Shown: positions 13,981 through 52,208, counted from the first letter of the stretch. The stretch is 64,000 bases of DNA from Alphaproteobacteria bacterium (GCA_965201155.1 OZ241752.1:719047-783046); one strand, 5' to 3'. Program-made: numbers and translations. The notes: generated by a model from the letters alone, not told the origin.

Positions 13981-15015
13981 CTATCGCCGTTTCCGGCGCT
14001 GGCGCCGCCAAGCCCTGATATAGGCCTTGCAATGCTCGTCGCGGCCGGTCAGCACATCTTCGGCAAGGCGGTAGCTTTCCGACTCGCGGTCGATCGCGAA
14101 GACTTCGGGCGGGAAACTCGAAACGGGATTGATGATTCCGCTGTCAGCTCCGGCCTCCACCGCCATGATCATAAACACGTCATTAATCGTCTTGCGCGCC
14201 GGAATGCCGAACGACACGTTGGAAAAACCGCCGGTGATATGAATTTCCGGCCCGTGGCGCGCGCGCAGCCCGCGAATCGCATCAATACCGTGGGCACCAA
14301 ATGCGCCGTCCACCGAGATGGGGAAATATAGCGGGTCGATGTAGATTTCGGAATCCGGGAATCCGAGCTTCCGCGCTGCGTCCACCATGCGCGAGGCGTT
14401 GTCGATGCGAGCCTCCGCGCTGTCGGGCATCCCGGTATCGCCGGCTGCCGTCACCACCACTTCCGCGTTATGCCGGCGCGCGAGATCCAGCGCATCCTTG
14501 CGCTCCAGCGACGCCGAATTGAGCAGCGGGCGCGGCCCTGCCGGATCGCTCGCCTCCAGGCCGGCAGCTATGATGTCCACGTTCGATGAGTCCACGGAAA
14601 CCGGCCGCGCGCTCAAGTCCTGAACAAACCGCACCAACCATGCGATCGCCGCTGTCTGTTCGTCGAACCGCACCGAAATTTCATCGACATTCACATCGAG
14701 AAAATCCGCCTCCGACGCTTCCTGCGCCCGGATGATGGAGCGCAGATACCGCGCGCATTCGTCATCACCCTCCATGGCGCCGCGCACGGCGATCATCACA
14801 TGCTTCACGCGCCCTTCGTCATAGTCCTGCGTGCGCTGCGCCCAGTCCGGAACCGGCAGCAGGCGCGGCTCGCCATCGGCGTCGGTGTAGCGGACGGCCG
14901 GTCCGCCTGCATCCTCCGGTGCGAAGCGACCGCCGCGTTTCATGACCACACGGGTCGTGTGCATGTTTTCGCCGATGACGACGAATTCGCCATTGGGGGC
15001 GGCGTCTAGCTTCAT
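13981..15015 (-). CDS. pterin-binding (DHPS/MtrH-like) methyltransferase. Probable role: methylcorrinoid:tetrahydrofolate methyltransferase (MT II).
   Basis: 344 aa TIM-barrel pterin-binding family protein (GENMHTT near the N-terminus). It is the last gene of the operon containing a corrinoid protein and a RACo activator. Confidence 0.7.
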   Translation of the reverse strand: MKLDAAPNGEFVVIGENMHTTRVVMKRGGRFAPEDAGGPAVRYTDADGEPRLLPVPDWAQRTQDYDEGRVKHVMIAVRGAMEGDDECARYLRSIIRAQEASEADFLDVNVDEISVRFDEQTAAIAWLVRFVQDLSARPVSVDSSNVDIIAAGLEASDPAGPRPLLNSASLERKDALDLARRHNAEVVVTAAGDTGMPDSAEARIDNASRMVDAARKLGFPDSEIYIDPLYFPISVDGAFGAHGIDAIRGLRARHGPEIHITGGFSNVSFGIPARKTINDVFMIMAVEAGADSGIINPVSSFPPEVFAIDRESESYRLAEDVLTGRDEHCKAYIRAWRRQRRKRR

Positions 15016-16673
15016 CCCGTCCTCCGTCGCGGCACCGGCGCCGCGAAACGCGCCGGCATGGGTTTGAACTGGCAGCCGTCGACGAACAACTCGAAAAAAT
15101 CAGGCGTCATTTCCAGTTCCACATGTTCGATCTTCTTCACCAGCGCTTCCAGCCGCAGCCGCTCGGGCGCCGACAGGAGCACCATTCGTGCGCCGGCGGC
15201 AGCGGCGTTGCCCACCTTGTCGATGCGTTCCACCGGAACCGGCGCCAGCAACCCGATATCGATCGCGTTTCGCGGGTCCACATAGGTTGCGAACCCGCCC
15301 GCGAGATAGAGTTTGTCTATCGCCTGCGGGTCGATGCCCAGTTGGCGCAGGACAATAAATTGTCCGCAATAGTTCGCGGCCTTGGCCTGACCGAGATTGC
15401 TCGCGTCGCGGCGCGAAAACGCGATTCCCCGCTCGCGCACCAGCGGAAGCGCGAACACCTTGCGCCCGGCGGCGAACACGCCTTTTGCCGTCATCATGCC
15501 GTGACGGCGCAATTCCGCCAGCAAATCGATGAGGCCCGATCCGCACAGCCCGTCGGGCGGCCTGTCGCCGATGGTTTGCCACGAGAAACCGTCGCCTGCC
15601 ACTGAAATGGACTCGATCGCGCCCGCCACTGCGGGCATTCCATATTCGACGAGCCCGCCCTCGAAGGCAGGGCCGGCAGGGCATGACGCAGCGGCAATGC
15701 GCCCGCCTGCCGCCACCACAACTTCCGTATTGGTACCCATGTCCACCAGCATCACCGCTTCGCCGGTGTGCTCGGAGAGACCGATGGCAGCGAGGCACGC
15801 TGCCGTATCAGCGCCGACATGACTGGCAATCAGCGGTGGGCTGTAGGCCCGGGCCCGGCGGTTGACCCGCAGGCCCAGCGACCAGGCATCAACCGACAGC
15901 GCAGTACTGTCTCGCCGCCCTGCGGCAAACTCATATTCCACCAATGATTTGTATGGCTTCTGGCCAATCGACTGCACATCATGGCCGAAGAAAATATCGC
16001 GCATTGTCGTATTGCCGGCAATCACGATCTCGTAAATCTCGCGGCGGGCAATGCCGTGGCGGCGCGCCAGATTCCGGATTTCGCGATTGAGTGCGGTGAC
16101 GACGGCCTGCTGAAGTTCTCCCTGCCCCGCCTCCCCGGCATAGGAGATGCGCGTCATCACGTCGCTGCCGGCAAAACGCTGCGGGTTTTCGAACGCCACC
16201 GCCGCCACCGACTCACCGGTTTCCAGATCGACCAGGTCCATTACCACCGTGGTCGTTCCGAGATCGACGGCAAGGCCGAGAATGCGTCCGCGATAGTGGT
16301 CGACGAGGGCGTCACCGTAAAACACATCGCCGCCGCGCCGCGTCACCATGGGAGCGCGGTCGAGGGTCGCGCGAGGCGCGCCTACAGTGACGATGCGCGG
16401 CCGCCGCCGCAGGGGGGCAAACACCACCTCGACATCGTCTGCGACGAGCACCGCCTGACAGGCCAGCCGATAGGGGTCGCGCAAGAAGGATTCCGCTTCG
16501 CTGCGCGGATTCAGCGCATCCATCCCGCGCGTGACTTCGACCACGCATTCGTGACAGCGTCCCGTGCGGCGGCATGAGGTAGCGACTTCGACCGCCAGTG
16601 CATCGGCATAGTCGAAAATGCTGCGCCCCACCGTCGCGCGATGCGCTGTGCCGTCGTGGCGAACCTGGCTCAC
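15012..16673 (-). CDS. reductive activator of corrinoid proteins (RACo-like): N-terminal 2Fe-2S ferredoxin domain plus ASKHA ATPase domain
   Basis: N-terminal plant-type ferredoxin Cys pattern C-x4-C-x2-C...C (CRRTGRCHEC...C). Large C-terminal acetate/sugar-kinase-like domain (DLGTTTVV, DMGTNTE). Coding regions overlap with both flanking genes. Confidence 0.75.
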   Translation of the reverse strand: MSQVRHDGTAHRATVGRSIFDYADALAVEVATSCRRTGRCHECVVEVTRGMDALNPRSEAESFLRDPYRLACQAVLVADDVEVVFAPLRRRPRIVTVGAPRATLDRAPMVTRRGGDVFYGDALVDHYRGRILGLAVDLGTTTVVMDLVDLETGESVAAVAFENPQRFAGSDVMTRISYAGEAGQGELQQAVVTALNREIRNLARRHGIARREIYEIVIAGNTTMRDIFFGHDVQSIGQKPYKSLVEYEFAAGRRDSTALSVDAWSLGLRVNRRARAYSPPLIASHVGADTAACLAAIGLSEHTGEAVMLVDMGTNTEVVVAAGGRIAAASCPAGPAFEGGLVEYGMPAVAGAIESISVAGDGFSWQTIGDRPPDGLCGSGLIDLLAELRRHGMMTAKGVFAAGRKVFALPLVRERGIAFSRRDASNLGQAKAANYCGQFIVLRQLGIDPQAIDKLYLAGGFATYVDPRNAIDIGLLAPVPVERIDKVGNAAAAGARMVLLSAPERLRLEALVKKIEHVELEMTPDFFELFVDGCQFKPMPARFAAPVPRRRTG

Positions 16674-16990
16674 GCGTCGTCTGTGCGGCGTCGGGCGGCA
16701 GCGCGCTCGCGAATGGTCCTGATCCGGCGTTTCGCGCGCTCACGGCTGTCAGGGCGGGTTTCCCACGCCAGCCGATAGTCGAAGCGCCCGTCATGAGTGC
16801 AAGCGGGTCGTTCGCCGTCCCCCATATCCAGCTGGCTGCGGCAGCGAATATGTGCGGTACAGCGGTCGTGCCGGTCGCGATAGGGGCAGCGCGTCTGCGC
16901 CTGCACCTCGGCATGGCCGACCATTTCGCCGAATATCTCGGTGATGCGGTCCAACCGCTTCTGCAGTTCGTCCTTGTCGGGTTTGGGCAT
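16670..16990 (-). CDS. small Cys/His-rich hypothetical protein within the corrinoid methyltransferase operon
   Basis: 106-aa ORF that overlaps the RACo start by 4 bp and lies 21 bp downstream of the corrinoid protein gene. Eight Cys/His residues cluster in the middle region and the C-terminus is basic. No family was recognised. Confidence 0.35.
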   Translation of the reverse strand: MPKPDKDELQKRLDRITEIFGEMVGHAEVQAQTRCPYRDRHDRCTAHIRCRSQLDMGDGERPACTHDGRFDYRLAWETRPDSRERAKRRIRTIRERAAARRRTDDA

Positions 16991-17011
16991 GGCGGTGAAA
17001 CGGCGTACCGG

Positions 17012-17761
17012 TCAATCGTCGGCTGTAGACAGTTCCTTCGCCAGCGCGACACAGGCGAGCGCGTCCTTGCCATAGCCGTCCGCGCCCATATCGTCGGCAA
17101 ATTCCTGCGTTACCGGCGCACCGCCGACCATGATGCGCACATCGTCGCGCAGGTCGGCATCGATGAAGGCTTCGATGGTCTTGCCCATATTCGGCATGGT
17201 CGTGGTCAGCAGCGCCGACATCCCCAAAACGCGCGCATCATGTTCCTCGACCGCCTCGATGAAGTCGTCCTCCGAGGTGTCGACCCCCAGATCGTGCACC
17301 ACAAACCCGGCGCCGCGCAGCATCATGATGCAGAGATTCTTGCCGATATCGTGCAGGTCGCCTTTTACCGTTCCCATCACCACGGTACCGATGGGTTCGA
17401 TCCCCGACGCCGACAGGATCGGTTCGATATGACCCATTCCCGCCTTCATCGCCCGGGCGCAGGCCAGCACTTCGGGAACGAAGATGAAGTTTTCCCGAAA
17501 CTTGATCCCCACAATCCCCATGCCGGCGATAAGCCCGTCATCCATGATCTCCAGCGCTTCGATACCTTCGTCGAGCGCCTGGCGGGTCAGTGCGTCCACT
17601 TCATCATCGTCGCCTTCAATGATACCCGCGGCAATGGCCTGCATGAGCGGGCGGATACGCGCAAAAAGCTCGATGTTGCGGGTGATTTCCTCTGGCCGCT
17701 CAAGATATTCCTCGATTTCGTCACGAATGATTTCGTTGCTGATATCGCCTAGTTCGGCCAC
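17012..17761 (-). CDS. corrinoid (cobalamin-binding) protein for a methyltransferase system
   Basis: B12-binding domain motifs DxHxxG (GDLHDIGKN), SALLTTT and GG (MVGGAP). Preceded by the N-terminal helical cap domain typical of MtaC/MtmC/MtbC-type proteins. Confidence 0.85.
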   Translation of the reverse strand: MAELGDISNEIIRDEIEEYLERPEEITRNIELFARIRPLMQAIAAGIIEGDDDEVDALTRQALDEGIEALEIMDDGLIAGMGIVGIKFRENFIFVPEVLACARAMKAGMGHIEPILSASGIEPIGTVVMGTVKGDLHDIGKNLCIMMLRGAGFVVHDLGVDTSEDDFIEAVEEHDARVLGMSALLTTTMPNMGKTIEAFIDADLRDDVRIMVGGAPVTQEFADDMGADGYGKDALACVALAKELSTADD

Positions 17762-17782
17762 CGCGCCCTCCCGCCCTGCAGC

Positions 17783-18829
17783 CTATTGGAGCGGTGAGCG
17801 CGCGTTATGCCAATCGCGCACGGCTAGCGGAATCTCGCGCAGATTTTCGATCGGAGCCTGCAACGGCACGGCGCATTCCGGCCCGATCGCCTGCACTCCC
17901 GCCTCGAGATTGGCGAACACTTCCGCACGCACTTCTTCCGGCCCGCGCGCAAACAGGGTTTCCGGGTTGTTGATATTGCCGACCAGCGCGATATCGCCGT
18001 GAACGGCGTCCATCGACTCTTCGGGAGGGTTCTTGGAGTCGAAATGGAAGGCGGCCATGCCGGTTTCGGCAATGAACGGCATGCGGTCAACCGTGCGTCC
18101 GCATATGTGCAGGATCAGCGGGATCGGCAGGCGTTCGGCGAATTCCTGATGAAGCTCTTTCAGAAACCGGTCGTAATATTCGCCGCTTACCAGGTCGCCG
18201 GTAGCGTGGTCGGGCAAGGTCAGTGCATCGGCCCCGGCCTCGATCTGCGCGCGGCCAAACTGTATCGTTACTTCTTTGAGCCGTTCGAGCACCAGTTGCG
18301 CCCGTCCCGGATCGTCCAGCGTCAGGAGCAGGAACGGCTCCACGCCGAAACAATGATAGGCGAGCGACCATGGCCCCATTGTCTTGCCGATGATCGCCAC
18401 TTCGTCGCCGAAGCGCCGGCGCAGGATCTTGATCGACTCGATGACGCAGGTCATGTCCGGATGAAGGAGCAGATCGTTCGGGATGGCGATCTCGTCCGCG
18501 TCCGTCCAGATCGGCTCACGCATGCGCACGGTCGGCCAGTTGTCCTTTTGCTCCCACTGCATCTTGCAGCCCAGCGCCGAAGACTCCTGAATGATCGAAA
18601 AGACGGGCATGATGGAATCAAACCCGAGATCGGTATAGCTGGTGGCAGCGAGGCGGGCCATCAATTCCGGGTCGCGATTGGCAACCGGAAACGGGGCTTC
18701 CACAAGGTCCATCAATTCGACGGTCGCCACCGATGTGGGGTTGCACACCGGCGTGCGGTCAACCGGTTGGCGCGCCAGCGCCGCCAGCACCCGTTCCCGC
18801 GAAGTCATCGACGCTACCTTTTCGGTCAT
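17783..18829 (-). CDS. uroporphyrinogen-decarboxylase-family methyltransferase (MtaA/CmuA-like). Probable role: zinc-dependent substrate:corrinoid methyltransferase (MT I).
   Basis: 348 aa, URO-D fold. H-x-C-G zinc-ligand motif (ILHICGRT) and a downstream Cys (GPECAVP) as in MtaA. First enzymatic gene of the operon. Confidence 0.8.
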   Translation of the reverse strand: MTEKVASMTSRERVLAALARQPVDRTPVCNPTSVATVELMDLVEAPFPVANRDPELMARLAATSYTDLGFDSIMPVFSIIQESSALGCKMQWEQKDNWPTVRMREPIWTDADEIAIPNDLLLHPDMTCVIESIKILRRRFGDEVAIIGKTMGPWSLAYHCFGVEPFLLLTLDDPGRAQLVLERLKEVTIQFGRAQIEAGADALTLPDHATGDLVSGEYYDRFLKELHQEFAERLPIPLILHICGRTVDRMPFIAETGMAAFHFDSKNPPEESMDAVHGDIALVGNINNPETLFARGPEEVRAEVFANLEAGVQAIGPECAVPLQAPIENLREIPLAVRDWHNARSPLQ

Positions 18830-18867
18830 ATCGGCCTCCCGCTTCCTCGAAGCATTCCCGGGTGTGT

Positions 18868-19554
18868 TCAGTTTTGCGCGCTGGGCGCTGCCAGCACGCC
18901 GCGCGTCGCCTGCATTTCTATCTCGCGCATCACTGCGCGCAGATTCAACGCGCGAACCATCAGCAACCCGATCAGTGGATCATGGGCAGTGCCGCAGTGA
19001 AAAGCGATGTCATTGTCGCTTTCCGATACCGCCTGCATTTCGGCGAGACGGACGAGGCCGCGCGCCACCGCCTTTACGCGCCGCGGATCACCATCTTCAC
19101 CGCGGACGCGATAGCGTCCGCCGCCGAGGGGTTCGACACGGATTGTCTGGTTGGACTTCTTGTCAAACACTTCCATGGGGCGCGGTGGCGGCGGCGCGCC
19201 CGGCGGTGCCTTGCAGGCGTCCAGAAAAAGCCGGCGAACCGCCAAGCGGTGCGGCGCGCCGCAGGTAAACCGCACAGCGCGCGGGCCGTCGCCGGCGACC
19301 ATGCCACCAAGCGTTTTCATCGCGTCCGCCACACCCTGCAAGCGCTCATCGGCGCCAGCGATTCGACTATAGGAATGAACCGTGAACGCGGTTGCATCGC
19401 CAGCCCGCCGCTCATAAAGGGCGATCGAGATGTCGTGAAACTGGGGGTCCATCGAGAACAGCTCAATCCGCCGCCCCAGATCGACGATACCCATGCGATG
19501 CTCCGCGCATTCCGCGATAATCACGACCATACATACCTGTACGGACGCCAACAA
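18868..19554 (-). CDS. hypothetical protein at the 5' end of the corrinoid methyltransferase operon
   Basis: 228-aa ORF only 38 bp upstream of the MT I gene on the same strand. No family was recognised and the start is uncertain. Confidence 0.4.
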   Translation of the reverse strand: MLASVQVCMVVIIAECAEHRMGIVDLGRRIELFSMDPQFHDISIALYERRAGDATAFTVHSYSRIAGADERLQGVADAMKTLGGMVAGDGPRAVRFTCGAPHRLAVRRLFLDACKAPPGAPPPPRPMEVFDKKSNQTIRVEPLGGGRYRVRGEDGDPRRVKAVARGLVRLAEMQAVSESDNDIAFHCGTAHDPLIGLLMVRALNLRAVMREIEMQATRGVLAAPSAQN

Positions 19555-20753: not shown

Positions 20754-20840
<87 letters not shown>

Positions 20841-20877
20841 CGAACACGGCTTCAACCCGCTCCGCCCGGGGGGCGGC

Positions 20878-21489
20878 ATGACGATTCACCTGCACCGCTA
20901 CGACCTTCCCGACAATGCCGAATTCGACGGCGATATCGCCGTTGACACCGAAACACGCGGCCTGCGCCTGGGGCGCGATCGACTGTGCCTTGTGCAACTG
21001 TCGGACGGCCGGGGCGCCGCGCATCTGGTCCATTTCCCGACGCCGGACTTTTCCGCGCCAAACCTGCGCGCGCTTCTGGCCGATGAGAACCGCGCCAAGC
21101 TCTTCCACTATGCGCGGTTCGACGTCGCTGTTTTGCGCGTGACATTCGGCCTCACCTGCCGGCCGGTTTATTGCACCAAGATCGCCTCCCGCCTCGCGCG
21201 CACCTATACCGACCGCCACGGCCTGAAAGACCTGACAGGAGAATTGCTGAGTGTTTCCCTGTCCAAGGAGCAGCAAAGTTCCGACTGGGCGGCACCCGAA
21301 CTCAGCGCTGCCCAGCAGGCCTATGCGGCAGCCGATGTGCTGTATCTTCACCGCTTGCGCGAGCGTCTGAATATCATGCTGGCGCGCGACGAGCGGGGCG
21401 CGCTGGCCGATGCCTGCTTCGCGTTCGTCCCCGTGCGCGCGGCGCTCGACATAGCCGGCTGGGGCGAGGAAGACATCTTCGCGCATTGA
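20878..21489 (+). CDS. 3'-5' exonuclease domain protein (RNase D-like)
   Basis: DEDD-type exonuclease motifs (IAVDTET, LVQL, HYARFD, Y..AA.DV). The upstream ATG at 20791 would overlap the tRNA, so the start is taken at MTIHLHRYDL. Confidence 0.75.
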   Translation: MTIHLHRYDLPDNAEFDGDIAVDTETRGLRLGRDRLCLVQLSDGRGAAHLVHFPTPDFSAPNLRALLADENRAKLFHYARFDVAVLRVTFGLTCRPVYCTKIASRLARTYTDRHGLKDLTGELLSVSLSKEQQSSDWAAPELSAAQQAYAAADVLYLHRLRERLNIMLARDERGALADACFAFVPVRAALDIAGWGEEDIFAH

Positions 21490-29690: not shown

Positions 29691-31206
29691 CGGCCATCAT
29701 GAGTCCCAGATTTCTCTCGGTCGCCTGATGCGGCGTCACTTCACCCATGATTTCGCCGCCGAACATGACCAGAATGCGGTCGGCCAGAACCATGATCTCG
29801 TCGAGCTCCACCGAAACCAGCAGGATTGCGCCGCCCGCATCCCGCATCGCAACCAGGCGCCGGTGAATCTGCTCCACTGCGCCAATATCCACACCGCGCG
29901 TCGGCTGCCCTACCAGCAGCAGGTCGGGACGTGTTTCCAACTCGCGCGCCAGGACCAGTTTTTGCTGATTTCCACCACTGAATGACCGTGCACGTTGCTG
30001 CGGAGCGCGCGGGCGAATATCGTAATTCGCCATTTTCGCCGCAGTGTCGGCGATAATCGCCTCCCGCCGCATCACCGCCCACCCCCCATGCGGGCGCCGG
30101 TTGTGATGGCCGAGCACGACATTCTCCCAGGCACGAAACGCCCCGACCAGCCCCATGCGCTGGCGGTCCTCGGGAACATGGGCGATGCCGCAGTCGCGGC
30201 GTCCGCCCGCCACCCCTGCCCGGTCGGGCAGCGGCTCGCCACGAAAAACCATGCGGCCGGAGTCGGCGCCGCGAATGCCCGCCAGCGCCTCCAGCAACTC
30301 CGACTGCCCATTGCCTGCAACTCCGGCGATGCCGACAATCTCACCCGCGTGCACCGTGAAGCTCACATCCCGGACGCGCATGACGCCGCGTGCATCCGAG
30401 ACATGCAGGTTTTCCACCGCAAGGATCGCCCCGCCGCGCCGCGCCGCCGCCTTGTTCACCCGCGGCAGAACCGGACGCCCCACCATCATTTCCGCAATCG
30501 CCTCGCGCGACACCTCCGCCGTCTGCAGACTGGCCGCCACGCGCCCCCGCCGCATGACGGTCACCGCGTCCGTCAACGCCATGATCTCGTGCAGCTTGTG
30601 TGTGATCAGGATCACCGTCTTGCCGCGCGCGCGCAGCCCGCGCAAGATGCGAAACAAATGGCCGGTTTCCTCGGGCGTCAGCACCCCGGTTGGCTCATCC
30701 AGAATCAATATTTCGGCGCCCCGATACAGGGCTTTCAGGATTTCCACCCGCTGGCGCAGACCGACAGGAAGCTCCTCGACTACCGCGTCCGGGTCGACCT
30801 CCAGCGCGTAGGTGTGTTCGAGACGTTCGAGATGCTCGCGCGCGGCGTCGAGGCCGGCGCGCAGCATGTGCCCGCTCTCTGCCCCCAGCACCAGATTTTC
30901 CAGCACAGTAAAAGGCTCCACCAGCATGAAATGCTGGTGCACCATGCCGACGCCCAGCGCCAGCGCATCCGCAGGACCGCCTATGCGCGCTTGCCGGCCG
31001 TTGATGAATATGGCGCCGGAGTCAGCCTGGTAATAGCCGAACGCGATCCGCATCGCCGTGGACTTGCCGGCGCCGTTTTCGCCCACAATGCCGTGAATCG
31101 TGCCACGCTCGACCGCCAGGGACGCATGGTCGTTGGCATGAACGGGGCCGAACCATTTGTCGATCCCCCGCAATTCGAGCGCGGGCGCCCCGGGGGGCGA
31201 AGCCAT
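29668..31206 (-). CDS. ABC transporter ATP-binding protein with two fused ATPase domains
   Basis: Two Walker A motifs (GENGAGKST and a second P-loop), two ABC signatures and two Walker B motifs, typical of nucleoside/sugar-type ABC ATPases. Confidence 0.9.
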   Translation of the reverse strand: MASPPGAPALELRGIDKWFGPVHANDHASLAVERGTIHGIVGENGAGKSTAMRIAFGYYQADSGAIFINGRQARIGGPADALALGVGMVHQHFMLVEPFTVLENLVLGAESGHMLRAGLDAAREHLERLEHTYALEVDPDAVVEELPVGLRQRVEILKALYRGAEILILDEPTGVLTPEETGHLFRILRGLRARGKTVILITHKLHEIMALTDAVTVMRRGRVAASLQTAEVSREAIAEMMVGRPVLPRVNKAAARRGGAILAVENLHVSDARGVMRVRDVSFTVHAGEIVGIAGVAGNGQSELLEALAGIRGADSGRMVFRGEPLPDRAGVAGGRRDCGIAHVPEDRQRMGLVGAFRAWENVVLGHHNRRPHGGWAVMRREAIIADTAAKMANYDIRPRAPQQRARSFSGGNQQKLVLARELETRPDLLLVGQPTRGVDIGAVEQIHRRLVAMRDAGGAILLVSVELDEIMVLADRILVMFGGEIMGEVTPHQATERNLGLMMAGERPLAA

Positions 31207-31224
31207 GGCAGAATACGCGCCGCT

Positions 31225-32202
31225 TCAGTCCGCCTGATACCCCTGCACGACGATCACCCCAGCGATGATATCCTGGCGCGCGCGTTCGATTTGCGCCTCC
31301 ATGTCGGCGGTGACAAGGCCCTGATTATATTCGTCAAGCGCCCATCCCACGCCGTCTTCGGCAAGACCCAGAATTTGCAGCCCGCTGCTCCAGGTGCCGT
31401 CGCGCGCATCCTTGAAGGCGGTGTATGTGGCGACATCCACGCGCTTGACCATGGACGTCAACATGGTGCCCGGATGGAGATGGTTCTGGTTGGAATCGAC
31501 GCCGATGGCGAGCTTGCCGGCATCCACGGCAGCCTGATACACGCCGGTGCCGGTGCCGCCCGCCGCCGCGTAAATCACATCCGCGCCGCGATCAAACTGG
31601 CTGCGCGCCAGTTCGCCGCCCCTGGCGGGATCGTTCCACGCCGCCGGCGTGGTGCCGGTCATGTTCTGGAAGACCTCGATATCCGGGTCGACATGGCGCG
31701 CGCCCTCCGCATAACCGGCCGCGAAATTGCGGATCAGGGGTATGTCCATGCCGCCGATAAAGCCGATCCTGCCCGTCTGCGACGCCAGTGCGGCCGCCAT
31801 TCCCACCAGGAACGAGCCTTCATGCTCCTTGAATATGATGGAACGCACATTGGGCAGATCCACGACACCGTCGATCAGTGCGAATTTCGTGTCGGGGAAT
31901 TCCCGCGCGGCTTTTTCCACTGCCGATGCTTGCGCAAAGCCCGTCGCCACAACCACCGCAGCGCCGCGCCGCGCCATGTTGCGAACCGCCTGTTCGCGCT
32001 GCGCCGGGCTGACGATCTCGAACTCCCGATAGTCGATCCCGGTCTCGGCACGGAAGCGTTCGGCGCCATCATACGCTGCCTGATTGAATGATTTGTCAAA
32101 TTTGCCGCCCATGTCAAAAATGAGGGCGACACTGAAATCCTCCGCCGACGCCGGATGCGTCACGGCAAGTGCAACGAGGACAAGGGCGATAACGCGGTTC
32201 AT
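31225..32202 (-). CDS. BMP-family (basic membrane protein) ABC substrate-binding protein, probably nucleoside-binding
   Basis: Signal peptide MNRVIALVLVALAVTHPASA followed by a BMP/PnrA-like periplasmic domain. The start is placed at MNRVI rather than the ORF-track upstream ATG. Confidence 0.85.
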   Translation of the reverse strand: MNRVIALVLVALAVTHPASAEDFSVALIFDMGGKFDKSFNQAAYDGAERFRAETGIDYREFEIVSPAQREQAVRNMARRGAAVVVATGFAQASAVEKAAREFPDTKFALIDGVVDLPNVRSIIFKEHEGSFLVGMAAALASQTGRIGFIGGMDIPLIRNFAAGYAEGARHVDPDIEVFQNMTGTTPAAWNDPARGGELARSQFDRGADVIYAAAGGTGTGVYQAAVDAGKLAIGVDSNQNHLHPGTMLTSMVKRVDVATYTAFKDARDGTWSSGLQILGLAEDGVGWALDEYNQGLVTADMEAQIERARQDIIAGVIVVQGYQAD

Positions 32203-33432: not shown

Positions 33433-34329
33433 ATGACAGTCGACAAACACGTCGTCGGCATTATCGGCGGCAGCGGCGTTGACCGCCTTGACGGACTCAC
33501 TGACACGCGCTGGGAAACAGTGGAAACGCCGTGGGGAGCACCGTCGGACCAGATATTGCGCGGCGTTCTCGGCGACCAGCCCATCGCGTTTCTGCCGCGC
33601 CACGGACGCGGCCATCCGGTCTCCCCCTCGGAACTCAATTTCCGCGCCAATATCGACGCCCTGAAACGCCTCGGCTGCCGCGATATCGTCTCCCTGAGCG
33701 CTGTCGGCTCGCTCAAGGAAGAACTCGCGCCCGGAACCTTCGTGCTCGTCGATCAGTTCATCGACCGCACATTCGCCCGCCAGAAAAGTTTCTTCGGCGG
33801 CGGTGTGGTGGCCCATGTGTCGATGGCCCAGCCCGTCTGCGGCCGCATTGGCGGCCATTTGATGCGCGCGGCCGAAACGGCGGATATCCCCATGGTGCGC
33901 GGCGGCACCTATCTGGTGATGGAAGGCCCGCAATTCTCCACCCTGGCGGAATCCGAATTGTATCGGTCCTGGGGATGCGATGTGATCGGCATGACCAACA
34001 TGCCGGAAGCCAAACTCGCGCGCGAAGCAGAGATCTGTTACGCGACGGTCGCCATGGTCACCGATTACGACTGCTGGCACCCGCACCATGACGACGTCAC
34101 CGTTGAAGCGATCATCGGCGTGCTGCTGGCCAATGCGGACAAGGGGCGGCAATTGGTTCAGCATGTGGTCCCGGCCTTGTCGGCCGATACCGCGCCCTGC
34201 GCCCAGGGCTGCTGCCACGCACTCGACAGCGCGCTCATCACCGCACCGGAAAAGCGCCCCGCCGAGCGCCTCGCCATGCTCGACGCCGTCGCCGGGCGTG
34301 TCCTGCCCCCGCAAACCGGTGGCGAGTAG
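33433..34329 (+). CDS. mtnP: S-methyl-5'-thioadenosine phosphorylase
   Basis: PNP/MTAP family. Motifs include GIIGGSG, phosphate-binding HGRGH and VIGMTNMPEAKLAREAEICYA. Confidence 0.9.
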   Translation: MTVDKHVVGIIGGSGVDRLDGLTDTRWETVETPWGAPSDQILRGVLGDQPIAFLPRHGRGHPVSPSELNFRANIDALKRLGCRDIVSLSAVGSLKEELAPGTFVLVDQFIDRTFARQKSFFGGGVVAHVSMAQPVCGRIGGHLMRAAETADIPMVRGGTYLVMEGPQFSTLAESELYRSWGCDVIGMTNMPEAKLAREAEICYATVAMVTDYDCWHPHHDDVTVEAIIGVLLANADKGRQLVQHVVPALSADTAPCAQGCCHALDSALITAPEKRPAERLAMLDAVAGRVLPPQTGGE

Positions 34330-35505: not shown

Positions 35506-36123
35506 GTGGCGAAATCAGCAGAATTGCCGCGTCTGGATGCCGCGCACCGTGTCGCCGTGCGCGCCTGTCTGGACGACATAAAGGACCTTGTGGCGCGTGA
35601 CGGAGTCAACCGGGAAACGCTGGAGCGGGTCAAGATGCGCCTGGTTGCGCTGTCCCGCCGCCGTGACCTGTTCAGCTATGACCGCTTTCCGGTGATCGAC
35701 GACAATGACGGCAAGCCCAGCAGCATCTATCTCCTTGACGAAGATGAGGACCACTCCAACGCGCTGTTCGCGGTTGCGGAGCATCAGGGCAATATGTCGC
35801 CGCCGCACGATCATACGACATGGGCGGTTCTGGTCGGCATAGAGGGCGAGGAACTCAACAAGTTCTATGTCCGTCTGGACGATGGCAGCGAAGATGGGCG
35901 GGCTGAAATTCGCGAGGACAGCCAGGAGGTTGTAAAGGCGGGGACCGGGGTCGCGCTGATGCCGGACGATATTCATTCGATTCACTGCGTCACCGAAACG
36001 CCGACGCTTATCTTTCATCTTTACGGACGCTCCATCGCGCATCTCCCCGAACGGCGCTTGTTCAACATGCGGAACGGGACGAGTCGCGTATATCCCGCCC
36101 AGCCCTTCATTCATCGCCTTTGA
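35506..36123 (+). CDS. cupin-fold protein of the cysteine dioxygenase type I-like family
   Basis: Cupin motif 1 with HxH...E (SPPHDHTTWAVLVGIEGEE) and a second His-containing motif (HSIHCV). Located next to a rhodanese gene. Confidence 0.6.
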   Translation: MAKSAELPRLDAAHRVAVRACLDDIKDLVARDGVNRETLERVKMRLVALSRRRDLFSYDRFPVIDDNDGKPSSIYLLDEDEDHSNALFAVAEHQGNMSPPHDHTTWAVLVGIEGEELNKFYVRLDDGSEDGRAEIREDSQEVVKAGTGVALMPDDIHSIHCVTETPTLIFHLYGRSIAHLPERRLFNMRNGTSRVYPAQPFIHRL

Positions 36124-37772
36124 GAACGCCCGCCATGACCGCTTTGCTGACGGCGGCGGCGCTCCAAGAGCGGTTGCGCGCGAACACAGGCGAAATCGTG
36201 CTGTTCGATGTGCGCGAGCGCGGCGAGCATGCCCGCGGCCATCCGCTGTATGCCGCCAGCCTGCCCCTGAGCCGCCTGGAACTCGATATCGCGCGGCTGG
36301 CGCCGCGGCAGGGCGTGCCCCTCGTCGTGTTCGACGACGGCCCGCCCGACAACCGGGCAGCGCGCGCCGCTGAGCGGCTGCAGCTGTTCGGCTATGGCGA
36401 CGTCCGCGTGCTCGAAGGCGGCGCCGCAGGCTGGACGGATGCGGGGTTCGAACTGTTCGACGGGGTTCATGTGCCGAGCAAGGCGTTCGGCGAATTGGTG
36501 GAAGAAGCCTGCGGCACGCCTCATATGTCGGCGGACGAACTGGCGGCGCTGCAAGACGGGGGGCGCAGCCTCGTAATCCTCGACAGCCGCCCCTTCGCCG
36601 AATATCAGCGCATGAACATTCCGGGCGGAATCAATGTTCCGGGGGCCGAACTGGTGCGCTGCGTGCACGACATTGCGCCCGACCCGGACACGCTGGTGGT
36701 CGTGAACTGCGCCGGACGGACACGCTCGATCATCGGCGCGCAATCGCTGATCAATGCAGGCGTGCCCAACCCGGTTGCCGCGCTGGAAAACGGCACCATG
36801 GGCTGGACCCTTTCCGGGCGGGTGCTGGAATCGGGCCAGACTCGCAGCGGTGCGGCGCCGTCCGCTGCCGGTGCGGCATGGGCGCAGCACGCGGCGGCGG
36901 AGGTGGCCAGGCGGTTCGGCGTACCGGAGATCGACCGCGCCACCCTGGCGCAATGGCAGTCTGAAGCGGAAGAACGCACGCTTTATCTGTGCGATGTGCG
37001 CAGCGCGGCGGAATATGAAGCGGGACATTTGCCCGGTAGCCGCCACACCCCCGGGGGCCAGCTTGTGCAGGCGACGGAAACCTATGCGCCGGTGCGCGGC
37101 GCTCGCCTGGTGCTGATCGACGATGACGGGGTGCGCGCCACCATGACTGCGTCGTGGCTGATTCAGATGGGCCATGGCGAGGTAAGGGTTCTGGCGGGCG
37201 GCGTGGATGCCGGCGAACAGGAAACCGGCCCCGAACCGCGCCATGTGCCCGGCCTGTCGCCGGCGCGGCGCACCTTCGAGATTGATGTCGGACGGCTGGC
37301 GGGAATGCTGCCCGGCCGCGACATGTTGCTGATGGATTTCGCCGACAGCCGGCGCTATCGGGCGGGGCATATTGCGGGCGCCGTGTGGGGTGTGCGCGCC
37401 CGCATCAGCCGGCTTGCGGAGCGGCTGCCGGAAGCCCCCATGATAATCATCACTTCGCCGGATTCACTGCTGGCGCATCTCGCGGCGCCGGAACTGAGCC
37501 GCCATGTGCGGGCGCCGGTGCGCGTGCTGCGCGGCGGCACCGATGCCTGGGCAGCCGCCGGCCTGCCGCTGGAGGCCGGCGCCGGCACGATGCTCGATGA
37601 GGCGGACGATGTGCATCTGCTGCCTTATGACCATGCGCCCGACCAGGTAGAGGCGGCAATGCGCAACTATCTCGACTGGGAAACAGCGTTGATACCGCGT
37701 ATCGCGCGCGACGGCACGGCGCGGTTTCATATTCCGACCGGCACGGAACACAGCGCCGCCAATGCCGTCTGA
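36120..37772 (+). CDS. multi-domain rhodanese (thiosulfate/3-mercaptopyruvate sulfurtransferase-like) protein
   Basis: Multiple rhodanese modules (about four repeats). At least one catalytic loop carries Cys (VVNCAGRTRS). 550 aa. Confidence 0.8.
   Translation: MRTPAMTALLTAAALQERLRANTGEIVLFDVRERGEHARGHPLYAASLPLSRLELDIARLAPRQGVPLVVFDDGPPDNRAARAAERLQLFGYGDVRVLEGGAAGWTDAGFELFDGVHVPSKAFGELVEEACGTPHMSADELAALQDGGRSLVILDSRPFAEYQRMNIPGGINVPGAELVRCVHDIAPDPDTLVVVNCAGRTRSIIGAQSLINAGVPNPVAALENGTMGWTLSGRVLESGQTRSGAAPSAAGAAWAQHAAAEVARRFGVPEIDRATLAQWQSEAEERTLYLCDVRSAAEYEAGHLPGSRHTPGGQLVQATETYAPVRGARLVLIDDDGVRATMTASWLIQMGHGEVRVLAGGVDAGEQETGPEPRHVPGLSPARRTFEIDVGRLAGMLPGRDMLLMDFADSRRYRAGHIAGAVWGVRARISRLAERLPEAPMIIITSPDSLLAHLAAPELSRHVRAPVRVLRGGTDAWAAAGLPLEAGAGTMLDEADDVHLLPYDHAPDQVEAAMRNYLDWETALIPRIARDGTARFHIPTGTEHSAANAV

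Positions 37773-38679: not shown

Positions 38680-38709
<30 letters not shown>
37762..38709 (+). CDS. periplasmic binding protein, probably ABC type 2 (iron-siderophore/cobalamin-like), orphan
   Basis: 315 aa with a PBP-like two-lobe pattern. No cognate permease or ATPase is nearby. The 3' end overlaps tRNA-Arg on the opposite strand by about 30 nt, so the true stop is uncertain. Confidence 0.45.
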
Positions 38710-38756
<47 letters not shown>

Positions 38757-41955: not shown

Positions 41956-42149
41956 TCAACGATCAGCCAAACGTCGCAATTCAGCTTGATACCGAGATAT
42001 CAAGACATTGATCGGCTCCGCGCGCTTAAAGAATGTTTGAGAGTCAACACCGTCCTCGGCGGTCAGTTTCGCAGCATTTCTTATCGTTTTGATAGCCCCT
42101 TTTCCCACTTGATTAGTCCAGTTTGGGAAACCCACCTGCGCGACCTTAA
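41956..42149 (-). pseudogene. Fic/Doc-family protein, displaced 3' portion (last 63 codons)
   Basis: Removing the IS and one TTAA copy joins ...EEVGVK to VAQVGFPNW... in a single frame, giving a 296-aa ORF that ends at 41956. Confidence 0.7.
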
Positions 42150-43432
42150 GGGAGGCTCTCAAAATCGCCTACTTTTCTCATTTATGTTGTATAATCCGGG
42201 TTGTTGTCTCGGGAGGCGGATTTGATGGGCATGCCGGGTTTTTTCGATCTTGAAGAACGGTTCGCAAAGCTTGACGGATTGGGCGATCCGTTGGCGAAGC
42301 TGTCCGGTTCTGTGAACTGGGAAGGGTTTCGCCCGGCGCTGGACGCGGCACTGTCGAAGCCGCGCAAGAGCAATGCCGGTCGCAGGGAATACGACCGGGT
42401 TCTCATGTTCCGGGTTCTGGTCTTGCAGCAAATGTACAACCTGAGCGACGACCAGACAGAGTTCCAGATCCGGGACCGCTATTCGTTCGCCCGGTTCCTG
42501 GGGCTGCATCCCGAGGATACGGTGCCCGATGCAAAGACCATCTGGCGGTTTCGGGAGAACCTGAAACTCGCGGAGGCGTTTGACAGCCTGTTTTCGGAAC
42601 TGTCCTCGCAGATCGAGGACCAGGGCTATGTGGCGCGCAGGGGACAGATCGTGGATGCGAGCTTTGTGAAGGCGCCGCGTCAACGCAACAGCCGCGACGA
42701 GAACGCACAGGTGAAGGCGGGGAAGGTTCCGTCCGAATGGTCGCAGAAGAAGCGTCGTCACAAGGACACCGACGCACGCTGGACGCGCAAGAGAAATGAA
42801 ACCCATTACGGATACAAGAACCACATCAGCGTGGACCGTGCGTATCGTCTTGTCCGTCGCTGGGAGGCGAGCGATGCGGCGTGTCACGACAGCAAGATGT
42901 TCGAACAGGTGCTTGATGAGACGAATACCAGTGGCGCTGTCTGGGCCGACAGTGCCTACAGCAGTCGCCACCATGAGGCGTTGCTGGCCGAACGAGGCTG
43001 GCGCAGCCACATTCACCGCAAGGGGCATCGCAACCGCCCCTTGCCTGTGCGCTCCCAGGAAGCCAACCGCAAGCGTTCGAAGGTGCGCGCGGTCGTCGAA
43101 CATGTCTTTGCTCAACACGAAGCGATGGGCGGCAAGCGGGTCAGGACTATCGGCATGGTCCGGGCACGCTTCAAGATCGGCATGATGAACCTGGTGTACA
43201 ACCTGCGCCGGCTTGTCTGGCTGCGGGCGAACCACCGGCCCCTCTGCTGCGACAGGGTTCAATAGAATGCCGAACACGGGGGGCCTATGTGCCCTGTGAA
43301 CCGTTTCAGGCTCTCCAACCGCTGTCGGGAACCGTTTTCCCCACCTGATCCGTAGTTCCACCGACTCTTTCATCCCCACAAAACCGACAAATCAACCAAG
43401 GAAAACAAGAAATCAAATTACGAGAGCCTCCC
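42150..43432 (+). mobile_element. IS5-family insertion sequence (about 1283 bp) with terminal inverted repeats GGGAGGCTCTC and a 4-bp TTAA target-site duplication
   Basis: Left end GGGAGGCTCTC at 42150-42160, right end GAGAGCCTCCC at 43422-43432. Flanking direct repeats TTAA at 42146-42149 and 43433-43436, consistent with IS5 insertion into YTAR targets. A single transposase ORF lies inside. Confidence 0.85.
42201..43265 (+). CDS. IS5-family DDE transposase
   Basis: 354-aa ORF with an N-terminal DUF772-like region (FRVLVLQQMYNLSDDQTE) and a DDE domain. The likely start is MGMPGFF at 42225. Confidence 0.85.
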   Translation: MLSREADLMGMPGFFDLEERFAKLDGLGDPLAKLSGSVNWEGFRPALDAALSKPRKSNAGRREYDRVLMFRVLVLQQMYNLSDDQTEFQIRDRYSFARFLGLHPEDTVPDAKTIWRFRENLKLAEAFDSLFSELSSQIEDQGYVARRGQIVDASFVKAPRQRNSRDENAQVKAGKVPSEWSQKKRRHKDTDARWTRKRNETHYGYKNHISVDRAYRLVRRWEASDAACHDSKMFEQVLDETNTSGAVWADSAYSSRHHEALLAERGWRSHIHRKGHRNRPLPVRSQEANRKRSKVRAVVEHVFAQHEAMGGKRVRTIGMVRARFKIGMMNLVYNLRRLVWLRANHRPLCCDRVQ

Positions 43433-44133
43433 TTAACACCAACTTCTTCCTTTTCACCCAATATACCAAACACTTTTCGCCGTTCTTCTATTCGCACCAG
43501 ATCAATTGTATTTCCTCTAGGATTTTGAAGATCATAGCCGAACGAGTTCAATATAGTTTTTAGTTCTCTAAAAGTGACCGTGTAGTATTTTTTATCTAAC
43601 TTTCGCGTATGCTTTTTCAAGAAATAGGATATATAATTGACTTGAGCATCAGCTTTATCTGAGCACTTTCGCTCTAATTCTTGATAACGCCTGGATTTAC
43701 GGAAATTACCTTTGGCCACATCTACCGCAAAATCCTCTAACTCTCTGTGGCCTATTATCGGAACTAAGTTTAACTTTTGAAGATGATAAACTAACGACAA
43801 AAAAGCCGTTCTCTTGTTAGCGTCGTAAAATGGATGATCTTTAATCAAACCAAAAAATAACGTTGCGCAGATATCCCAATTGGACTCCCATTTTCGTCTT
43901 CCGGCGAACATAACATGTTGACGATGAAGTGCAGAATGAAGAAGATTCATGTCCTTGGGTCCGATACCGCCCAGCCCACGTCCTCGAGCAAAGAAGTGAT
44001 CAGCAATCAAGTAGTGCGCTTTTAGCACATCCTTTATTCCAAGATAACCCGGCCCAGAATAGGGATCTTCATCGTCGAGTGATGCCAAAGATGATTGATA
44101 GGATATCCGAATTGGCTCAGCTAAGTACTGCAC
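43433..44133 (-). pseudogene. Fic/Doc (Fido)-family protein, 5' portion (codons 1 to about 233), truncated by the IS5 insertion
   Basis: Doc-type active-site motif HPFYDANKR (HxFx[D/N][A/G]NKR). About 45% GC, against about 65% for the window. The frame continues into the IS end. Confidence 0.75.
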
Positions 44134-45262: not shown

Positions 45263-46948
45263 ATGACACTTCCAAGAAGCTCTCTCGCGGTCATGTTGGC
45301 CGCGCTTGTTGCGGCGGGCTGCAGCGATAGTGATAGCTCGCCCCCTGCCATGCCACAAACTCCGCCTGAAACGCCTGCACCGACGGTCCATAACCTGGAA
45401 CTCCCGGCGGGCGACCTTGGCTCGCTTGCCGCCGGTATGCTGATGCTTGGCGCTGGCGATACCGCAACCCGCGGCAATGTCGAGTTTTCGTGCCCTGCCG
45501 GTGGAGATGCGTGCAGTATCGAAGTCATGGACAGTGTCGGCACGCTGACAGCGCAGTCGACCGGCGGCATGGCGACGGCCATGATGGTCGAGATGCTGGA
45601 AGATCCGATGCCGACGGTCCATATGCTGGAACTCCCGGCCGGCGACCTCGGCTCGCTTGGCGCCGGTATGCTGATGCTTGGCGCCGGCGATACCGCAACC
45701 CGCGGCAATGTCGAGTTTTCGTGCCCTGCCGGTGGAGATGCGTGCAGTATCGAAGTCACGGACAGCCTCGGCACGCTGACAGCGAAGTCGACCGGCGGCA
45801 TGGCGACGGCCATGATGGTCGAGATGCATGTTGACCCGGATCCGGCGGTCCATAGCGTCATGCTGCCGAGCGGCGCCAAGGCCGGCGGCCTCTCCGCAGG
45901 CAACACCATGGTCACCGCCGGCGCCAGCAGGATGGTCGGCAATTTCGTTTTCACCTGCGCCGCCGGCGCGATGGATTGTAACATTGAAGTGTATGAGAAC
46001 CTCGGAGTTCTCATGGCCAAATCAACCGGCGGCATGGCAACGGTGATACCGTTGTCGATGTACCTGCCGGGCGATACGCCCACATCTCCGGCCACGGCCT
46101 TCGGTTTCCTCAATGACGAGATGCTGCCTGATATCTCGATGTGGAAGATGGACGGCGGCAAGTTGGTGAAGCCGATGACCAAGAAGGAGGCTTTTGCAGC
46201 GGCGATTACGGGCGCCAACGATACAACCACCGGGGTTATGTCTCACATAGAGCTCGACAATGGAAGTCGTGTCGGCGTTAGTGGATTTTCCATGGTAGGA
46301 GATGGCAAAGGCATGGAATATAGCCAGCTAGCCATGGCCGGAGGTTATCTACGTGGCGACACAACGGCAGATTCCTCAGACCTTGGTGGGTTCGACGGAT
46401 ATAGCCTGATGGGTGCCCTGACCACTGGCGCGGACAGAAGTTGGACCGCTGAGGCGCTGGTTTTCTCGGACGGGGCTGAGGACGGAGCCACAAACTTCGG
46501 CATCTGGGCTGCTGATTTTGGAGATGTCCACAGTGCTGACCTCATGAGGGTGGGCGTGTTTGCTCAACTGCCGAGCATGGCCGGGAGTAGCTTTGCGGAT
46601 GATGTTTTAGGCGGCATGGCCACCTACTCCGGTGGAGCCGCTGGCTTTATCGCCGGCAACGACATGAATGATGTCTGGACAGGCGTGGTCGACCTGAATG
46701 CCAATTTCACGCAGGGAAATGAAACTATCGGCGGCATGATCAGAAGTGGCAGCATCCCGACCATTACACTTAGCCCCCAACGCGTTGACGCCATCTCGAC
46801 CATGATGAAAGGTCGCGCGTTGGCCAAAGTGGCGGGTGCGCCGGAAGGAAGATGGAACTGGGCCTTCAGCGATGACGCAGGGCAAGTCGGCGGCACGGTT
46901 GATGTATCCAACATCATCGGTGCTTTCGGCGCGCACCGGAACTACTAG
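45263..46948 (+). CDS. surface lipoprotein with three N-terminal 77-aa Cys-pair modules (two near-identical) and a TbpB/fHbp-like C-terminal beta-barrel domain. Methionine-rich.
   Basis: Signal peptide plus lipobox LVAAGC. Modules carry FSCPAGGDACSIEV and a recurring STGGMATAMMVEM motif. C-terminal pattern GGMATYSGGAAGFIA...VWTGVVDLNANFTQGN.TIGGMI...GRWNWAFS...VGGTVDV.NIIGAFGA matches lipoprotein 8-strand barrel handles. Confidence 0.8.
   Translation: MTLPRSSLAVMLAALVAAGCSDSDSSPPAMPQTPPETPAPTVHNLELPAGDLGSLAAGMLMLGAGDTATRGNVEFSCPAGGDACSIEVMDSVGTLTAQSTGGMATAMMVEMLEDPMPTVHMLELPAGDLGSLGAGMLMLGAGDTATRGNVEFSCPAGGDACSIEVTDSLGTLTAKSTGGMATAMMVEMHVDPDPAVHSVMLPSGAKAGGLSAGNTMVTAGASRMVGNFVFTCAAGAMDCNIEVYENLGVLMAKSTGGMATVIPLSMYLPGDTPTSPATAFGFLNDEMLPDISMWKMDGGKLVKPMTKKEAFAAAITGANDTTTGVMSHIELDNGSRVGVSGFSMVGDGKGMEYSQLAMAGGYLRGDTTADSSDLGGFDGYSLMGALTTGADRSWTAEALVFSDGAEDGATNFGIWAADFGDVHSADLMRVGVFAQLPSMAGSSFADDVLGGMATYSGGAAGFIAGNDMNDVWTGVVDLNANFTQGNETIGGMIRSGSIPTITLSPQRVDAISTMMKGRALAKVAGAPEGRWNWAFSDDAGQVGGTVDVSNIIGAFGAHRNY
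45380..45841 (+). repeat. tandem direct repeat of 2 x 231 bp, about 94% identical, within the lipoprotein coding sequence
   Basis: Copy 1 spans 45380-45610 and copy 2 spans 45611-45841. Both begin ccgacggtccat and both contain ...ggcaatgtcgagttttcgtgccctgccggtggagatgcgtgcagtatcgaagtc... Confidence 0.9.
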
Positions 46949-52135: not shown

Positions 52136-52208
52136 CGGGGAAACGGGCCGCGCGGAGCGCCCTTGTCGACGAAACTGCCGGGTTGTTCGATAATCCCGGA
52201 AACTTACC

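Follow-up and report, generated by a model that had tools for sequence, protein, structure and literature searches.

The window analysed here, a 64,000-nucleotide stretch of the genome of an Alphaproteobacteria bacterium (GCA_965201155.1, OZ241752.1:719047-783046), contains an operon of six co-directional minus-strand genes at 13981-19494, in the order H-A-C-s-R-T, whose sequences suggest that it functions in the manner of a three-component corrinoid methyltransferase with a RACo activase. Methyltransferases of this kind are traditionally associated with methanogens and acetogens, and it is only recently, with the description of MtgBCDE in 2025 (PMC12478193), that a role in aerobic bacteria has been recognised. 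Compared with the systems described so far, the new features of the present module are the combination of an MtaA-type enzyme with a tetrahydrofolate (THF) methyltransferase, two extra conserved subunits, the phyletic range and a link to split methionine synthases; a full-text literature search found no description of such a cluster. The reading that we prefer, with a probability of about 0.45, is that A and H would together demethylate a methylthio compound and that the methyl group would pass through the corrinoid protein C to THF, so that the module would be a hub like MtgBCDE. Gene content, motifs, conservation and synteny are directly observed features of this module, and its direction and substrate are proposed because of the accessory genes found in its relatives.

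The six genes are tightly packed, with spacings of 38 bp (H/A), 21 bp (A/C) and 21 bp (C/s) followed by overlaps of 4 bp (s/R) and 4 bp (R/T), which are exactly the values given in an earlier note on this DNA. Profile searches also agree with the assignment of four components made in that note, i.e., a methyltransferase I (MT I), a corrinoid protein, a RACo and a pterin-binding methyltransferase (Table 1). The note left the substrate unassigned, and the gene content of the operon indeed does not fix it. The first gene had been started at a TTG at 19554; its start is most likely the ATG at 19494 (208 aa), since a GGAG lies 7 nt upstream of this codon, public gene calls favour it, and the same start is shared by all homologues. 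A megablast search of the operon against plasmids gave no match, and a promoter and terminator scan of the operon stayed at chance level. An Rfam search of the operon and eight related loci returned tRNAs alone, with no S-adenosylmethionine (SAM) or B12 riboswitch.

Table 1. Genes of the H-A-C-s-R-T operon, in the order of transcription (positions counted in the window).
Gene	Predicted product	Position	Strand	Basis
H	208-aa orphan protein with internal tandem duplication	18868..19494	-	motifs; adjacency to A
A	MtaA/CmuA-family (URO-D fold) zinc methyltransferase	17783..18829	-	PF01208, TIGR01463, 4AY7
C	corrinoid (B12-binding) protein, cap and Rossmann domains	17012..17761	-	PF02607 and PF02310
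s	106-aa four-Cys module, accessory to the activase	16670..16990	-	fusion to RACo in some lineages
R	RACo-type ATP-dependent reductive activase of corrinoid proteins	15012..16673	-	PF00111, PF17651, PF14574
T	pterin-binding methyltetrahydrofolate:corrinoid methyltransferase	13981..15015	-	PF00809

A scan with one genome per species recovered 342 stretches in which a relative of the MtaA-like protein is encoded. Of these, the best 80 all come from metagenome-assembled genomes (MAGs), and no cultured host was identified; among the 80, Alphaproteobacteria, Latescibacterota, Gemmatimonadota, Acidobacteriota (Bryobacterales, Terriglobia), Poribacteria and Planctomycetota are represented; the sources are sponges, deep lakes, groundwater and soil, and the nearest relatives are MAGs labelled Alphaproteobacteria. 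For the comparison of neighbourhoods, the six window proteins were mapped onto 89 related loci; longest-ORF calling gave spurious antisense open reading frames (ORFs) in the GC-rich loci, and tblastn mapping and GC3-based calling were used instead. In 80 or more loci from at least six, mostly uncultured, phyla the same order H-A-C-s-R(-T) is found, showing that the arrangement is not due to chance and that the module is not an alphaproteobacterial oddity. Identities to the window proteins across the loci are 75-85% for A, 73-93% for C, 55-78% for R, 51-82% for T, 42-73% for H and 38-82% for s; those of A and C are high for proteins compared between phyla. H stands immediately upstream of A in 89 of 89 loci, s is present in 83 of 89 with its four cysteines conserved, and T adjoins R in 55 of 89. 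Since H and s are conserved across the related loci, they are integral parts of the module and not bystanders; the earlier note had listed one as a hypothetical protein and the other as a small Cys/His-rich ORF. In Poribacteria loci where H-A stands alone, a transposase interrupts the operon. Several Latescibacterota and Gemmatimonadota loci carry an island of 1-6 kb between the C gene and the s-RACo gene (L059, 6355-12288; L065, 9862-15728; L054, 9946-13761), in which HerA-like ATPase, DNA methylase, Tse2-like toxin, SNF2 helicase and helix-turn-helix proteins are encoded, one spot having been struck repeatedly. These inserts consist of defence and mobile genes and are hence uninformative as a functional clue.

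The chemistry of the module is best approached through A, which matches the URO-D family PF01208 at 1e-64 and belongs to the MtaA/CmuA family by the TIGR01463 mtaA_cmuA model (249.3 bits, cutoff 235.4), while scoring below the MtaA/MtbA equivalog cutoffs (224.6 bits against 400 for NF040654 and 189.7 bits against 600 for NF041608). The alternative that A is a true uroporphyrinogen decarboxylase (HemE), which the earlier note had named as one that would overturn its assignment, does not apply, as the TIGR01464 score of 63.6 bits lies below the cutoff of 303. The alignment of A with Methanosarcina MtaA (PDB 4AY7, E 4.7e-53) spans the full length of the protein, and H241 and C243 of its motif H241-I-C243-G, together with C319, are in register with the zinc ligands H-x-C ... 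C of that structure. This His-Cys-Cys triad is invariant in 30 homologues, and the mean column identity of A across phyla is 76%, which is high for a between-phyla comparison. Kountz and Balskus associated the His-Cys-Cys ligation with the sulfur and selenium methyltransferases of the UroD superfamily, the O-methyltransferases of which replace one or both cysteines (PMC10418091). In the 2026 Cdm paper, the haloalkane and O-demethylase MT I enzymes (CdmB, MtvB and others) were placed in a separate clade, and CdmB lacks zinc (PMC13222342). A keeps all three ligands and is nearest to MtaA, so that an acetogen-type O-demethylase MT I, in which the cysteines are replaced or absent, was rejected as its identity. 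Judged by alignment and zinc ligands, A appears to belong to the MtaA/SCMT branch rather than to that of OdmB, VdmB, MtvB and CdmB. The His-Cys-Cys site and the closeness to MtaA point to sulfur chemistry, and the methyl partner of A is most likely a thiol or thioether, or a selenol or selenoether, whereas an aryl methyl ether or a methyl halide would be an unlikely partner. The list of candidate substrates drawn up earlier is therefore narrowed to sulfur and selenium compounds, and the analogy to O-demethylases and halomethane systems proposed there for the MT I turns out to be weak. MtaA-family enzymes that act as MT I on thioethers are MtpA, with 3-methylthiopropionate (MMPA), and MtsA. A tblastn search of A against plasmids gave nothing above 27% identity, with no cmuA annotation among the 25 records listed out of 33, in a collection that was not checked for the presence of pCMU01.

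The corrinoid protein C matches PF02607 (2e-21) and PF02310 (9e-29), and its motifs D-L-H-D-I-G (DxHxxG), S-A-L (SxL) and G-G, like the H-x-C-G motif of A, are readable in the sequence as the earlier note had stated. Its best NCBIfam match is of the MtgC type, below the cutoff (205 bits against 370). R contains PF00111 Fer2 (8e-7), PF17651 Raco_middle (1.5e-43) and PF14574 RACo_C_ter (1e-64), all above cutoffs, and the RACo cysteines C34, C40, C43 and C72; it is also AcsV-like, at 278 bits, below the cutoff. The small protein s has no family match in Pfam and NCBIfam profile searches and shows the pattern RCPY-x4-D-x-CTA-x3-C-x2-Q ... C-x2-D-x3-DYR-x-AW. In some lineages s is fused to the RACo N-terminus to give proteins of 631-645 aa (L089, 11887-13824, 645 aa; L090/L091, 11972-13867; L093, 11959-13875). 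These natural fusions argue for a partnership between s and R, in which s would probably be an accessory domain of the activase and provide a second metal or Fe-S site.

T matches PF00809 at 2.4e-20 and PRK07535 with 187 bits, below the cutoff of 259. The earlier description of this protein as MtrH/DHPS-like holds for pterin binding, but not for the likeness to MtrH, the match to which is only 18 bits; the type is that of MeTr/MetH-Fol. The closest solved relative is the O-demethylase methyltransferase II (MT II) of Desulfitobacterium hafniense (4O0Q, 2e-29), followed by the acetogen MeTr and then by MetH, and T carries a conserved N-terminal extension of about 90 aa. In a tblastn search against plasmids, its best match, a distant one, is a Sinorhizobium/Paracoccus 'methyltetrahydrofolate cobalamin methyltransferase' with 33% identity. 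With only such distant plasmid matches (at most 27% for A and at most 33% for T), a known cmu or mtg locus was rejected, and so was MetH, as profile searches found neither its homocysteine-binding PF02574 domain nor its AdoMet activation domain in the operon; both had been named in the earlier note as findings that would speak against it. An MttB-superfamily MtgB (PF06253) was found neither in the operon nor in the Pfam-annotated neighbourhoods of the relatives, and tblastn found no PF02574 protein anywhere in the 64-kb window.

H gave no match in sequence searches of Pfam, NCBIfam or the PDB. Its family is small, with 284 representatives among 1.84 billion proteins, all of them stand-alone proteins of about 210 aa and none named, and a profile search of the 1.84 billion representatives for domain fusions of H yielded frameshift or chimeric artefacts only. 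The protein is an internal tandem duplication with an F-x-C-G-x3-H motif in each half; the four residues C78, H82, C167 and H171 are invariant in 41 sequences, and the C-terminal tail RGVLAAPSAQ is invariant as well. An AlphaFold2 model of H is confident (pLDDT 91, pTM 0.86). From these features we infer a Cys2His2 metal site at the pseudo-dyad of H, and the invariable adjacency of H to A suggests that the two proteins form a stoichiometric partnership.

Outside the Alphaproteobacteria the operon is longer, with the full layout K-(g')-H-A-C-sR-(E)-F-T-v. K, an APH-fold kinase, is encoded immediately before H in L087 (5913-6917, within the operon) and in 30 further loci, and its sole relatives in NCBIfam and the PDB are methylthioribose kinases, which match weakly (TIGR01767, 62 bits; 2OLC, E 8e-7). 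The divergent regulator g' is a GntR/FCD protein of the carboxylate-sensing NanR/LldR type. E, a homocysteine-binding methyltransferase with PF02574, shares a cluster with A in at least 11 loci; F is an MTHFR whose C-terminal domain is rich in Cys, and v is a PF13769 protein. Within the Alphaproteobacteria, seven loci have an acyl-CoA ligase divergent from H (L021, 5506-7233, minus strand; L052, 5499-7124, minus strand; and five more), for which the best NCBIfam model is the 3-(methylthio)propionyl-CoA ligase of the DmdB type, with 633-636 bits against a cutoff of 822. Other alphaproteobacterial neighbours are a D-2-hydroxyacid dehydrogenase (10 loci), a CobW/COG0523 GTPase (5 loci) and a family III CoA-transferase. 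One alphaproteobacterial lineage has a core-MetE-like protein, MetF and a Cys/Met-pyridoxal phosphate (PLP) enzyme near the module. In one alphaproteobacterial MAG (L092, 5312-7861), a 347-aa core-MetE-like protein (PF01717, without the folate-binding half), a DUF3775 protein and MetF lie just upstream. Core methionine synthases that take the methyl group from corrinoid proteins have so far been described in anaerobes only (PMC7857596). None of these neighbour genes occurs in the present window. Across the related loci, the module consistently accompanies methionine, methyl-THF and methyl-sulfur metabolism. The statement of the earlier note that the neighbourhood offers no hint at the substrate is thus correct for the window, the flanks of which hold no transporter, regulator or substrate clue, but not for the relatives, with their GntR/FCD regulator, MtnK-like kinase, DmdB-like ligase, MTHFR and homocysteine methyltransferase.

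In the proposed mechanism, C would carry the methyl group on cobalt, and R with the four-Cys protein s would use ATP and a low-potential electron to return Co(II) to the active Co(I). T would exchange the methyl group between C and THF, and A, probably complexed with the Cys2His2 protein H, would exchange it between C and a sulfur (possibly selenium) compound. In the demethylation direction, A and H would be the substrate-specific MT I that loads C with the methyl group of a small methylthio compound, the candidate donors being MMPA, dimethylsulfide (DMS) or methanethiol, and a methylthio-sugar or methylthio-acid. From C the methyl group would pass to THF via T and, in the relatives with the extra module, to homocysteine. 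The hub would then be organised as in Ruegeria MtgB/MtgC/MtgD/MtgE, with the MtaA-like enzyme replacing MtgB. In R. pomeroyi, the donor-specific MtgB loads MtgC, from which the bidirectional MtgD passes the methyl group to THF or MtgE passes it to homocysteine; an MTHFR paralogue and a RamA-type activase are adjacent, and the modular donor/hub/acceptor model is based on genetic evidence (PMC12478193). The methyl-pool modules that accompany the present system in other phyla (MTHFR, PF02574, PF13769) match this model. The demethylation direction is suggested by the GntR/FCD regulator and kinase in the relatives, the DmdB-like neighbour and the catabolic affinity of T, and also by the fact that A has its own corrinoid protein and activase.

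However, several points weigh against demethylation, the direction that the earlier note had assumed in writing methyl-X to THF; related clusters carry methionine-synthase modules. The methylation of Co(I) by a thioether (MMPA) is thermodynamically unfavourable. The transfer of a methyl group from a thioether to THF lies still further uphill, as follows from methionine-synthase energetics. A net demethylation flux would need a strong pull from product removal, and because demethylation is uphill, the opposite flow, from methyl-THF to C to a thiol, is a serious rival. The co-occurrence with E, F, T, core-MetE, MetF and Cys/Met-PLP genes is just as compatible with a biosynthetic direction. The hints at a substrate (the kinase, the GntR regulator and the DmdB-like ligase) lie outside this window and each in a part of the phylogeny, the DmdB-like and MtnK-like matches are below curated cutoffs, and no transporter or regulator accompanies the operon in the window. 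In addition, the function of the module is, for every member, a reading of its sequence. In the biosynthetic direction, the module would be a split, RACo-reactivated analogue of the cobalamin-dependent methionine synthase, in which T loads C from methyl-THF and A methylates a thiol, converting homocysteine to methionine, or sulfide or another thiol to methanethiol or a thioether. The six-gene set would supply the four functions of MetH (zinc thiol activation, folate, B12 and reactivation) as separate proteins, and thiol methylation is both the favourable direction and the one native to MtaA; the cluster does accompany MTHFR, core-MetE-like, MetF and Cys/Met-PLP genes, and the window has no PF02574 homologue that could be the homocysteine module instead. 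Split MetH enzymes with RamA-type activases are, moreover, established in Phaeobacter and Ruegeria (PMC5764234, PMC12478193). We nevertheless regard this direction as somewhat unlikely. A bona fide PF02574 module is clustered with A in the at least 11 related loci mentioned above, which would make A redundant as a homocysteine methylase there; the operon is not preceded by a SAM or B12 riboswitch, a substrate-sensing GntR/FCD regulator with a kinase is unusual for methionine biosynthesis, and T is nearer to the catabolic MT II than to MetH.

Two further alternatives concern the substrate. A methyl-selenium function, in which A would demethylate dimethylselenide or methylselenol, or methylate selenide, a role put forward for Mlp2/SdmC in type 1 mlp clusters, would be compatible with the His-Cys-Cys site; Mlp2, which is MtaA-like, methylates selenide in vitro, and the use of dimethylselenide depends on sdmC (PMC10418091). 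It is very improbable here, as no selABD was seen in the neighbourhoods examined, and a type 1 mlp cluster was rejected, since it requires at least Mlp2 and Mlp3, whereas the present loci have a single MtaA-like gene with a THF methyltransferase (T in 55 of 89) in hosts that are not obligate anaerobes. An O-demethylase or methyl-halide dehalogenase, in which A would activate an aryl methyl ether or CH3Cl/CH3Br and the methyl group would go to THF, appears very improbable. The four-component layout resembles that of the acetogen O-demethylases and Cdm, T has its greatest similarity to the O-demethylase MT II of D. hafniense, and MTHFR is paired with a pterin-binding methyltransferase in the cmu pathway as well. 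However, A lies by alignment on the MtaA/SCMT branch with both cysteine zinc ligands kept, which O-demethylases lose, its plasmid matches do not exceed 27% identity, and A and C are unfused, unlike CmuA.

If the demethylation reading is carried further, H-A-C-s-R-T may be a cobalamin-dependent methylthioether demethylase of aerobic bacteria with a new-fold Cys2His2 partner. This more specific proposal, quite doubtful at present, would supply genes for two activities that were postulated from physiology and to which no gene is known to have been assigned. One is a 'DMS methyltransferase' in Thiobacillus ASN-1 and Methylophaga thiooxydans, described as still unidentified (PMC6548844). The other is the demethylation of MMPA to 3-mercaptopropionate in the degradation of dimethylsulfoniopropionate (DMSP).

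In comparison with known systems, the module shares with the methanogen MtaA, MtbA, MtsA and MtpA the fold, the TIGR01463 family and the His-Cys-Cys zinc site, as well as the pairing with a corrinoid protein of the MtaC/MtgC kind, encoded separately, and with an ATP-dependent activase; in contrast to these, it occurs in bacteria without a coenzyme M (CoM) or methanogenesis context, is coupled to a THF methyltransferase, and has in H an obligate orphan partner with no known methanogen counterpart. MtgBCDE and the split MetH of R. pomeroyi and P. inhibens (Mausz et al. 2025, PMC12478193; Price et al. 2018, PMC5764234) are alike in being modular and in having presumably aerobic hosts. Like MtgBCDE, the module combines a stand-alone corrinoid protein (with the MtgC models below cutoff) with a pterin-binding methyltransferase and a RamA/RACo-type activase, and its relatives also have an MTHFR paralogue and a PF02574 homocysteine module. 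Unlike MtgBCDE, however, the donor enzyme is MtaA-like and not an MttB-family MtgB, no DUF1638 protein was seen, H and s are extra, and T shares only about 33% identity with the rhizobial/Paracoccus homologue and has the extra N-terminal region.

The O-demethylases of acetogens and Desulfitobacterium, and Cdm, likewise have four components in one operon and a RACo-type activator, and T is closest to their 4O0Q; the differences are that the MT I belongs to another UroD clade and has a zinc ligation that predicts sulfur or selenium rather than O or halide, that the hosts are not acetogens, and that H and s are without a counterpart there. The type 1 mlp clusters are alike in the proposed methyl-sulfur and methyl-selenium metabolism, but they contain two or three distinct Mlps, lack a THF methyltransferase and are restricted to obligate anaerobes (Kountz and Balskus 2023, PMC10418091), whereas the present module consists of one MtaA-like gene with T, H and s in other phyla. 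CmuAB resembles it in the corrinoid-mediated transfer of a methyl group to THF in aerobic Alphaproteobacteria, followed by MTHFR-type oxidation; however, CmuA is a fused methyltransferase-corrinoid protein, where here A and C are separate, and cmu encodes no reductive activase.

The flanks of the operon in the window are of the housekeeping kind: mutS (convergent with the operon), an NAD-dependent epimerase, pst/pho, malic enzyme, an rnd-like gene, kpsF, lptAB and rpoN. An S-methyl-5'-thioadenosine (MTA) phosphorylase is encoded at 33433-34329 on the plus strand, 14 kb off the operon (NF006492, 498 bits against a cutoff of 437), and is followed by a protein with three rhodanese domains (36120-37772). 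A hydantoinase/oxoprolinase pair of A and B subunits lies at 50045-53930 (plus strand); a related pair upstream of the module in L021 matches caprolactamase, below the cutoff. The window also has a tRNA-Leu(CAG) at 20754-20840 (plus strand) and a tRNA-Arg(CCG) at 38680-38756 (minus strand), and because the tRNA-Leu overlaps the start of the ORF at 20791-21489 (3'-5' exonuclease domain), this ORF probably starts farther downstream. The GC content dips to 52.5% at 42001-44000, against about 64% elsewhere, coinciding with a DDE transposase at 42201-43265 (PF01609/DUF772) and pointing to an insertion sequence or a small island of foreign DNA. Two long plus-strand ORFs, 29995-32091 (698 aa) and 45263-46948 (561 aa), have no Pfam match at E<=1e-4 and may be real orphan genes or GC-rich artefacts.

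With this module, bacteria of soil, freshwater, groundwater and sponges are seen to encode a sulfur-directed enzyme of the MtaA type, together with two uncharacterised subunits, one of which, H, is without a structural relative in the PDB. It offers a gene candidate either for the turnover of methyl-sulfur compounds (DMS, methanethiol, MMPA and methylthio-sugars) or for an alternative methionine route. Both possibilities are relevant to sulfur and C1 cycling and to the B12 demand of uncultured lineages.

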